From NCBI GenBank assembly GCA_041663045.1, contig JBAZRH010000001.1, positions 340,403-404,402 on the forward strand: 64,000 bases of DNA, written 5' to 3'. Source of the DNA: Minisyncoccota bacterium. Lineage in GTDB: Bacteria > Patescibacteriota > Minisyncoccia > Phycocordibacterales > GWA1-40-21. Position numbers and translations under genes: made by a program. The first letter of the stretch is position 1, and each line of letters begins with the position of its first letter. Below, in pieces: positions 26,883-26,955 of the stretch. The notes under the pieces were generated by a model. It did not search any database. It saw nothing but the letters and a program-made list of their open reading frames with translations, and was not told the DNA's origin.

Positions 26883-26955
26883 GTAGCCCCGAGTAGTATT
26901 GAACTACTGTTTCCTCCTTTAAGGGAAGCGTCCTACATTAGACGACAGGGCCATA
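26883..26955 (-). ncRNA. 73-nt tRNA-Glu-like element abutting the start codon of 25452..26873 (copy 1 of 2, 100% identical)
   Basis: minus-strand sequence UAUGGCCCUGUCGUCUAAUGUAGGACGC... matches 22/25 nt of the tRNA-Glu acceptor 5' strand + D-arm. It folds into a degenerate cloverleaf with a 7-bp acceptor (two G:U), D-arm, 6-nt anticodon loop and 5-nt T-loop. Confidence 0.5.

Follow-up and report, generated by a model that had tools for sequence, protein, structure and literature searches.

A tRNA-Glu-like RNA encoded directly before genes of a BshC-like protein family in Patescibacteria, a candidate non-decoding partner of the enzyme

Why should two strongly diverged paralogous genes each be preceded, almost up to the start codon, by the same tRNA-like stretch of DNA? 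The question is raised by a locus of a Minisyncoccota bacterium, located in a stretch of 64,000 nt of contig JBAZRH010000001.1 (assembly GCA_041663045.1, positions 340,403 to 404,402 of the forward strand), which was analysed as a whole and is called the window here. A preliminary description of the sequence had drawn attention to a 73-nt element standing before the start codons of two paralogs, A and B. The reading that we favour, to which we assign a probability of about 0.5, is that the element encodes a tRNA-Glu-like RNA that does not decode and is dedicated to a BshC-like enzyme as its carrier or substrate; this RNA would be co-transcribed with the enzyme, excised and used in trans. This reading is based on an RNA structure with covariation, on a linkage that is conserved, on decoding features that are lost and on the predicted fold of the protein; from these we infer the processing, the charging, the role in trans and the chemistry. 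The features on which the argument turns are the following (R1 is a covariance model, described below):

28524..28592, minus strand: tRNA-Glu-like RNA gene copy 2, from G1 to the discriminator A73 (Rfam tRNA 44.3 bits, R1 81.6 bits)
28523-28595, minus strand: repeat unit of copy 2, which adds U-3 A-2 U-1 and C74 and stops 4 nt short of paralog B's ATG
26884..26952 (unit 26883-26955), minus strand: tRNA-Glu-like RNA gene copy 1 (Rfam tRNA 44.3 bits, R1 84.4 bits; cloverleaf of minimum free energy)
27058..28518, minus strand: paralog B, 486 aa, an open reading frame (ORF); predicted fold resembling BshC / an aminoacyl-tRNA synthetase (aaRS) of class I; uncharacterised
25452..26873, minus strand: paralog A, 473 aa, an ORF of the same family, 33% identical to B
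11522..11596, plus strand: canonical housekeeping tRNA-Glu(UUC) (ARAGORN; Rfam 63.7 bits)

A tRNA-Glu-like cloverleaf and its conservation

The units at 26883-26955 and 28523-28595 form an exact 73-nt direct repeat with 0 mismatches, and the preliminary description was right in stating that the copies are 100% identical beside strongly diverged genes, whose proteins share 33% identity. The DNA flanking the copies showed no relatedness beyond the edges of the unit, and the search for further copies that had been recommended, carried out within the 64 kb, found none beyond these two with up to 3 mismatches allowed (chance expectation 0). Read on the minus strand, each copy consists of UAU, 69 nt and a C. 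The distances to the start codons had also been given correctly: 4 nt separate copy 2 from the ATG of B (28518) and 9 nt separate copy 1 from the ATG of A (26873). Both start codons are considered correct, because the N-termini that they encode are conserved in the homologues.

On the gene strand, the element of the window folds into a cloverleaf with acceptor stem GGCCCUG/CGGGGCU, D stem GUCU/GGAC, anticodon stem CUUCC/GGAGG, a variable loop of 4 nt, T stem AGUAG/CUACU with T loop UUCAAUA, and a discriminator A. The cloverleaf is also the structure of minimum free energy (-26 kcal/mol, z = -3.2), in which 21/21 stem pairs form, and a permissive covariance search for tRNA, another of the checks proposed, placed both copies above threshold (44.3 bits with Rfam RF00005 under permissive filters, against a gathering score of 29). 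The term 'degenerate cloverleaf', used earlier, does not suit such stems; it does suit the loops. The anticodon loop, CUUAAA, is of 6 nt and does not offer the 7 nt, U33 and sensible anticodon that decoding needs, and the D loop, AAUGUA, is without G18G19, yet the T loop UUCAAUA is kept. The two abnormal loops are the likely reason why ARAGORN and default Rfam, run on the whole window, detected neither copy.

The acceptor 5' strand and the D arm of the element resemble those of the tRNA-Glu(UUC) at 11522 in about 24/26 positions once a gap of 2 nt is allowed in the D loop, so that the likeness of 22/25 nt reported before was roughly right. That tRNA has GG in the D loop, T loop UUCGAUU, an anticodon loop of 7 nt and an encoded CCA, and it is the likely evolutionary source type of the element. 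None of the 15 genuine tRNAs in the window departs from the canonical form, and tRNA-Glu(UUC) coexists with both elements.

Homologues of both paralogs were obtained from the protein database, and about 400 kb of locus DNA from genome, metagenome and encoding contigs was searched with R1, which was built from 11 elements. As a result, a tRNA-Glu-like cloverleaf was found 5' of the family gene, on the same strand, in 13 loci of Patescibacteria besides the window (L001/L016, L002/L021, L003/L022, L004, L005, L006, L008/L033/L034, L017, L018, L019, L029, L030 and L157), and the claim of a tRNA-Glu-like cloverleaf on the gene strand, linked to the paralogs, was borne out by the fold and by these loci. 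With the two copies of the window they make 15 independent gene instances and 14 distinct element sequences. The spacer between element and ATG measured 4-30 nt (about 30 nt in L008), except in L018 (~75 nt). Every strong R1 match other than genuine tRNAs stood on the 5' side of a family gene and in its orientation, and the remaining matches in the fetched loci were genuine tRNA-Glu, tRNA-Gln, tRNA-Cys and tRNA-Leu genes with lower scores. Default Rfam missed 12/12 elements tested in the other loci, while recovering every genuine tRNA there; if the favoured reading is right, a class of structured RNA is being overlooked systematically by the standard tRNA and Rfam pipelines. ARAGORN called four elements, as Asp(AUC) in L004, Glu(UUC) in L005, Glu(CUC) in L006 and Asn(GUU) in L030.

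The structure of the element is under selection. Across the 14 distinct sequences pairing was observed in 99.7% of cells, with double (compensatory) changes at 11/21 pairs, in agreement with RNAalifold; the observed values were reached by 0/500 shuffles, and controls slid along the sequence were paired to 38-61%. The compensatory changes concentrate in the anticodon stem (5/5 pairs) and in the T stem (4/5). The acceptor stem is nearly invariant (G1.U72 in 12/14, G2-C71, C3-G70, C4-G69), as is the D stem (G10-C25, replaced by G10.U25 in L030 only, U11-A24, C12-G23, and U13.G22 in 14/14), and the fold is tied to the gene strand by its conserved G.U pairs, U13.G22 and G1.U72.

The features required for decoding have fared differently. 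Beyond the five consensus pairs of the anticodon stem, the unpaired stretch is of 5 nt in L001 and L029, 6 nt in the window and 8 nt in L157, L003 has an 8-nt anticodon loop on a 4-bp stem, and all other elements have 7 nt. The anticodons are UUC, CUC, AUC (with A34), GUU or none; G18G19 is missing from the D loop in 13/14 distinct elements, and several T loops are without U54, U55 or C56 (e.g., UGAAAGG, UGUAAAC, UUUAAUU). The 3' end is retained, with A/G73-C74 in 14/14 elements and the full CCA encoded in 7/14. In E. coli-type tRNA-Glu the identity set comprises U11-A24, U13.G22..A46, a missing nt 47, U34 U35 C36 and acceptor pairs; nearly all elements have the augmented D helix and the 4-nt variable loop that belong to this identity, and U35 C36 occur in 12/14, being absent from the element of the window (CUUAAA) and from L030 (GUU). 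Coexistence with a canonical isoacceptor, together with diverged D and T loops, is what characterises a non-proteogenic tRNA, and both are seen here. Judging from their sequences, the elements keep the look of a tRNA-Glu for the synthetase and the end-processing enzymes, and have lost what the ribosome requires; the loss of decoding and elbow features suggests that EF-Tu and the ribosome would bind them weakly.

A scan of viral contigs with the acceptor and D-arm pattern returned 118 stretches, nearly all of them ordinary tRNA-Glu genes (anticodon UUC in 98, CUC in 13) with GG in the D loop and the same G1.U72 acceptor, and tblastn found no family gene beside these stretches. Since the pattern retrieves ordinary tRNA-Glu, the invariant part of the element is the generic tRNA-Glu body and not a private signature, and in the light of the E. 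coli identity set it is taken as the portion read by glutamyl-tRNA synthetase (GluRS). That G1.U72 might set the element apart was considered and rejected, because the ordinary tRNA-Glu genes of the viral contigs have the same acceptor. Also on viral contigs, L067, L096, L106 and L135 hold tRNA-Glu-like stretches without the D-loop GG and with unusual T loops (GAGCGUUAC), with no family gene near; they may be other degenerate tRNA-Glu derivatives.

The protein family and its surroundings

Paralog B retrieved 81 homologues, all hypothetical and mostly from Patescibacteria, and sequence comparison indicates that A and B are ancient paralogs, both types being spread across Patescibacteria. Neither protein had a match in Pfam, NCBIfam, PDB phmmer or PDB profile searches, and 15 family members compared with Pfam at E up to 10 gave no relevant model, BshC, cyclodipeptide synthase (CDPS) and aaRS models included. 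In a profile search the family comprised 1287 cluster representatives at E ≤1e-3, with 662 at 1e-30 or better, among them a ~530-aa branch outside the candidate phyla radiation (CPR), e.g., in Desulfobacterales; these distant relatives had no Pfam match and no informative names. Two records of the family carry unexpected labels: the locus L006, which looks CPR-like because its protein is 76% identical to paralog B, is labelled Bdellovibrionales, and the locus L010 is labelled 'Methanosarcinales archaeon'. Both are probably mis-binned contigs.

AlphaFold2 gave models with pLDDT 90.8 and pTM 0.91 for A, and pLDDT 94.1 and pTM 0.93 for B. When these were compared with the PDB by Foldseek, BshC (4wbd) was the sole significant match, with probability 1.00 and E values of 3.1e-5 (A) and 1.9e-4 (B); for A the next match was the class I lysyl-tRNA synthetase 1irx (E 7.9e-3), followed by weak matches to TyrRS, GluRS, CysRS and ArgRS. 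Because the TM-scores are modest (0.33-0.41), the assignment is at the level of the fold and not of family membership. An invariant pair of histidines (H84-H85 in A) follows the first beta strand and an invariant G349/G355 loop follows a late strand; in the predicted model, H84 H85 might lie near the position expected for the class I HIGH motif. The predicted BshC/class-I-aaRS-like fold points to the RNA as a partner of the enzyme, and not as a leader only.

Around and between the two genes the window contains:

24374..25447, minus strand: M19-family dipeptidase (PF01244, E 3e-18), starting 4 nt after the stop of A
23154..24293, minus strand: alanine racemase (PF01168 and PF00842), 80 nt downstream
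26956..27057, minus strand: spacer from the stop of B to copy 1, with an AT palindrome; a hairpin was seen in the fold of 26850-27010

In the window, L002, L006, L030, L033 and L157 the family gene is followed, immediately or with one gene between, by an M19 dipeptidase, and the alanine racemase is a possible member of the operon. Other peptidases were found upstream of the family gene, M20 in L035 and S51 in L030, and proteins with PPDK_N and/or phosphoenolpyruvate (PEP)-utilizer domains recur in L002, L030, L035, L154, L156 and L157. In the ~530-aa branch outside CPR (L031/L032, 1136-4999), the gene is preceded by a long diaminopimelate (DAP)-epimerase-like protein and by an 842-aa major facilitator superfamily (MFS) fusion protein, and no tRNA-like element was found at the locus. 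Taken together, the neighbours suggest amino-acid, dipeptide and possibly D-amino-acid chemistry, and they do not define the reaction. In one CPR locus (L028, 6729-8057), the gene right after that of the family encodes a histidyl-tRNA synthetase.

Several observations concern the DNA around the module. The AT-rich palindrome lies at 26958-26990 (TATATTATCATGTATAATAATATA, plus strand), in the interval that separates the stop codon of B from copy 1, and may represent an operator, what is left of a terminator, or a piece of a promoter. On the minus strand, a box of -10 type, TGn-TAATAT, occurs ~7 nt before copy 1 and, by its sequence, might be the promoter of this copy; scanning the surroundings of the module for promoters and terminators gave nothing informative beyond chance, with 34 promoter-like sites against 23.6 expected. 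The GC content of the A/B block (25300-28600) is 0.26-0.34, against 0.36-0.48 in the flanks (22000-25000 and 28600-31000), which may be due to acquisition of the module by horizontal transfer or to a composition specific to these genes. The module and tRNA-Tyr are separated by roughly 1 kb of DNA (28600-29570) that is richer in GC and apparently non-coding. Within it, two stretches of 38 nt, 28691-28728 and 29348-29385, repeat each other with 79% identity, and an inverted repeat, CGCACAGTGCAAA/TTTGCACTGTGCG, surrounds a terminator-like hairpin at ~28888-28950; a permissive Rfam search of 28600-29570 gave no credible match. The NCBI locus tags of the paralogs are consecutive (WC631_01865 and WC631_01870), and so nothing seems to be annotated between them in the public record.

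Leader, punctuation mark or partner of the enzyme

The position of the elements has to be judged against the habits of this genome. A Shine-Dalgarno (SD)-like motif was found in only 3/43 long ORFs (≥150 aa, whole window), and a TATAAT box lies 5-10 nt before the ATG in many ORFs (e.g., those starting at 565, 4989(-), 34956, 42896(-), 54089(-), 55116 and 58244(-)), which suggests that leaderless-type mRNAs are widespread. The preliminary description had stressed that the element leaves no room for an SD sequence: the distances are as it said, but with SD-like motifs before 3/43 ORFs the lack of room is the rule here and not peculiar to these genes. The AGGAGG of the element itself, in the 3' strand of the anticodon stem, was considered as an SD sequence and rejected, being ~36-41 nt from the ATG, not conserved in relatives and in an SD-less genome. 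As for tRNA ends, each of the window's 15 genuine tRNA genes carries N73-C74 with A-rich sequence after it, CCA being encoded only in 3 (Ser-CGA, Glu and Arg), which implies a 3' maturation that keeps C74 or restores CCA; the 73-nt unit ends exactly at C74, like these genes. Moreover, tRNA-Gln(CUG), at 54895-54966 (-), ends 1 nt before the ATG of the ORF 54126-54893 (-), a PF03372 exo/endonuclease/phosphatase, for which 3' processing of the tRNA would also leave a practically leaderless mRNA.

How many RNA species does a genome have, and do they follow the genes behind them? The element sequences are not grouped by the A or B type of the gene that follows: L006 (before B) and L002 (before A) are 88% identical, and L008 (B) and L001 (A) 81%, within a range of 49-88% between genomes. 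The gene order is element, B, A in L018 and element, A, B, M19 in L157, each with one element for two paralogs, and B, M19, element, A in L002, where the element stands at the A copy only. In a Staskawiczbacteria metagenome-assembled genome, recognised by a shared NCBI locus-tag prefix, an element precedes A (L001) and none precedes the likely unlinked B (L154). These observations fit one trans-acting RNA species per genome, encoded by 1-2 gene copies that are kept identical, and multi-copy tRNA genes are usually identical within a genome. Since there is no co-divergence with A or B, and one copy per operon occurs in L018, L157 and L002, the identity of the two window copies is what concerted evolution plus purifying selection of one RNA species would lead one to expect; the recent gene conversion or insertion proposed before is thus only part of the account, and a newly inserted repeat does not fit.

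According to the reading that we favour, the element would be transcribed with the mRNA of the enzyme or just ahead of it, the normal enzymes of tRNA 5' and 3' processing would excise it, and it would be completed to CCA like the other tRNAs of the genome. It would then be loaded with an amino acid, most likely Glu by the housekeeping GluRS, because the parts shared with tRNA-Glu are kept (acceptor stem, U11-A24, U13.G22, the 4-nt variable loop and usually U35 C36); alternatively, it would be loaded by the adjacent synthetase-like enzyme. The charged element would act in trans as a dedicated aminoacyl carrier for, or substrate of, A and B, in a pathway that may also involve the M19 dipeptidase and, in other genomes, the PPDK_N and PEP-utilizer phosphotransfer proteins; RNA and enzyme would thus probably make up a pair with a role apart from translation. 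As a by-product of excision, the mRNA of the enzyme would be left with a leader of 4-10 nt, suited to an SD-less genome. More tentatively, and as something that we hold clearly less probable than the pairing as such, the translation-independent pair could be self-contained, the BshC-like enzyme charging the carrier and/or moving its amino acid to a non-protein acceptor in a pathway of D-amino-acid and dipeptide metabolism; BshC-fold ligases in general would then use an aminoacyl-tRNA or a similar RNA as donor.

Several points weigh against this reading. Charging by GluRS is doubtful in the window itself, because its element has lost U35-C36 (loop CUUAAA). The Foldseek TM-scores are low, the Pfam and PDB searches gave no sequence-level link of A and B to BshC or to any aaRS, and a canonical HIGH or KMSKS motif is not evident in either protein. 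About half of the family loci examined are without an element in the fetched DNA (L007, L009-L011, L014, L015, L024-L028, L031/L032, L035, L154 and L156), and therefore the enzyme does not always depend on an RNA in cis. Furthermore, where an element is present it stands always directly 5' of the family gene and never elsewhere in the operon, which would suit a role in cis as well, and the case of tRNA-Gln tells us that adjacency of a tRNA and an ATG is not special in this genome.

Two explanations make the element act in cis, and we consider both unlikely, to about the same degree. The cloverleaf could serve as punctuation only, recruiting RNase P and a 3' nuclease so that the mRNA begins with a short leader or almost none, or becomes a segment of its own, with the excised RNA functionless. 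Such a use would agree with the SD-less genome, the TATAAT boxes near many ATGs, the spacers of mostly 4-10 nt after C74 or CCA, the constant place directly 5' of the gene, and the true tRNA-Gln 1 nt before the unrelated ORF at 54893, where abutment is used or tolerated. RNase P and RNase Z, however, read shape, yet the sequences of the acceptor and D stems are invariant while the proteins are 30-60% identical; any tRNA would serve, whereas in every case it is this type that occurs, and solely before this family; spacers of ~30 nt (L008) and ~75 nt (L018) are not leaderless, and the second genes in L018 and L157, like many homologues, manage without an element. The RNase P signal generating leaderless mRNAs, proposed in the preliminary description, is thus retained as a plausible source of near-leaderless mRNA, as a by-product of excision, and not favoured as the sole role. 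Alternatively, the cloverleaf could stay in the 5' untranslated region (UTR) as a tRNA mimic bound by A/B, by GluRS or by sensors of uncharged tRNA, in an autoregulation modelled on the thrS operator. Its constant placement before the start codon, the retention of identity-type elements with the loss of decoding features, and an aaRS-like predicted fold of A/B that could bind tRNA would all be accounted for. But a mimic in a UTR does not need N73-C74, often CCA, which are conserved as in real tRNA genes, and a stable full cloverleaf would almost certainly be cleaved by RNase P; in addition, the two tandem paralogs of L018 and of L157 share a single element, the B copy of L154, which is likely unlinked, has none, and the RNA does not co-evolve with the type of the adjacent paralog.

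The element could also be unconnected with the enzyme in function. An odd tRNA-Glu isoacceptor or a decaying pseudogene, syntenic by inheritance, would explain why ARAGORN calls four elements tRNAs, why the acceptor and the D arm have the typical tRNA-Glu form, and why the copies are identical, as those of multi-copy tRNA genes normally are; even so, we regard it as improbable, more so than either role in cis. Pairing of 99.7% with 11 compensatory pairs across lineages is not expected of a pseudogene, nor is 100% identity of the copies while flanks and proteins diverge; anticodon loops of 5, 6 and 8 nt, A34, and the loss of G18G19 and of T54-C56 are not tolerable in a decoding tRNA, and a canonical tRNA-Glu coexists in the window. 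Synteny across CPR classes at 30-60% protein identity needs selection. Least probable of all is a recent mobile mini-element, or a duplicated tRNA-derived attachment (att) site of an integrase. The perfect identity, the sharp edges and the lower GC of the A/B block would be in its favour, but there are two copies only in 64 kb, no terminal inverted repeats or target duplications were found at them and no integrase nearby, an att site would hold the 3' half and not the full-length tRNA, and position, orientation and structure are kept, with covariation, in 13 other genomes. The recently spread mini-element of the preliminary description has to be abandoned, as the RNA is conserved before homologues across many lineages of Patescibacteria with compensatory changes; this explanation is effectively refuted.

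In a literature search of limited coverage we found no published description of this RNA, of the protein family or of their pairing. The ingredients are known, namely non-proteogenic tRNAs, aaRS-like enzymes that use aminoacyl-tRNA, and co-transcripts of tRNA and mRNA; the combination, in which a BshC-fold family across CPR is joined to a degenerate lineage of tRNA-Glu, appears to be new. If the favoured reading is correct, this would be only the second lineage of tRNAs reserved for non-ribosomal use, after the staphylococcal tRNA-Gly, the first one physically coupled to the enzyme that uses it, and the first in CPR. It would also give a functional handle on a large 'hypothetical' family (1287 representatives) and a testable hypothesis for the activated substrate of BshC-fold enzymes, an open question in bacillithiol synthesis (PMC5790435); were the generalisation to the BshC fold to hold, it would suggest the identity of the long-missing 'activated cysteine' of BshC. 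Finally, the locus illustrates tRNA processing as a possible source of short-leader mRNAs in SD-less genomes of leaderless type.

Comparison with known systems

The closest parallel for the RNA is the non-proteogenic tRNA-Gly of staphylococci, a separate lineage beside the normal isoacceptor, which is the aminoacyl donor for FmhB, FemA and FemB in peptidoglycan synthesis; non-proteogenic tRNAs have so far been detected only in S. aureus and S. epidermidis (PMC7826273). Like these, the elements keep the identity of acceptor and D stem, with degenerate D, T and anticodon loops. Unlike them, they are of Glu type, occur in CPR and are fused to the gene of the presumed user, and their role would be as argued above. 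They are also more degenerate, since the staphylococcal tRNAs keep the UCC anticodon (PMC7826273), whereas here the loop length varies and A34 occurs. The users differ too: those of staphylococci have the GNAT/Fem fold, and the partner here is predicted to have a Rossmann fold of the class-I-aaRS/BshC-like kind.

On the side of the protein, BshC is the enzyme that putatively adds cysteine when bacillithiol is made; its reaction was never reconstituted and its activated donor is unknown (PMC5790435). A and B are similar to BshC (4wbd) in size and in a predicted Rossmann core related to class I aaRSs; in contrast with BshC, they have no detectable sequence similarity to it and no bshA/bshB context, and they belong to CPR and not to Firmicutes. 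bshC is not known to be accompanied by a tRNA gene. A class I aaRS-like fold that takes the aminoacyl group from aminoacyl-tRNA for the synthesis of small molecules or dipeptides is known from the IleRS-like SbzA and from CDPSs (PMC12945691), and a CDPS is known from Parcubacteria. The peptidase neighbours of A and B hint at a similar dipeptide chemistry; SbzA and CDPSs use ordinary cellular tRNAs, whereas a dedicated, co-encoded tRNA is proposed here. SbzA retains HYGH and AMSKA motifs and the IleRS architecture, whereas A and B have no Pfam match to an aaRS. Nor do A and B (473 and 486 aa) fit the profile of a CDPS, with no Pfam match and weak TyrRS-like Foldseek matches. CDPSs, of ~230-300 aa, are also smaller.

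For the genetic arrangement, the pylT-pylS pair comes to mind, in which the atypical tRNA-Pyl, with reduced D loop and elbow, is encoded beside the one enzyme that recognises it. tRNA-Pyl, however, is a decoding UAG suppressor with a 7-nt anticodon loop and a class II synthetase, PylRS, whereas decoding is implausible for the elements described here. Co-transcription of tRNAs with an mRNA is familiar from the thrU-tyrU-glyT-thrT-tufB operon of E. coli. In MALAT1/mascRNA, a tRNA-like fold within a long RNA is described, the ends of which are set by processing of RNase P type (PMC11693755). The tufB operon and mascRNA offer ordinary decoding tRNAs or a 3'-end signal, respectively, and it is the conserved pairing of one degenerate tRNA type with one enzyme family that sets the Patescibacteria loci apart from both.

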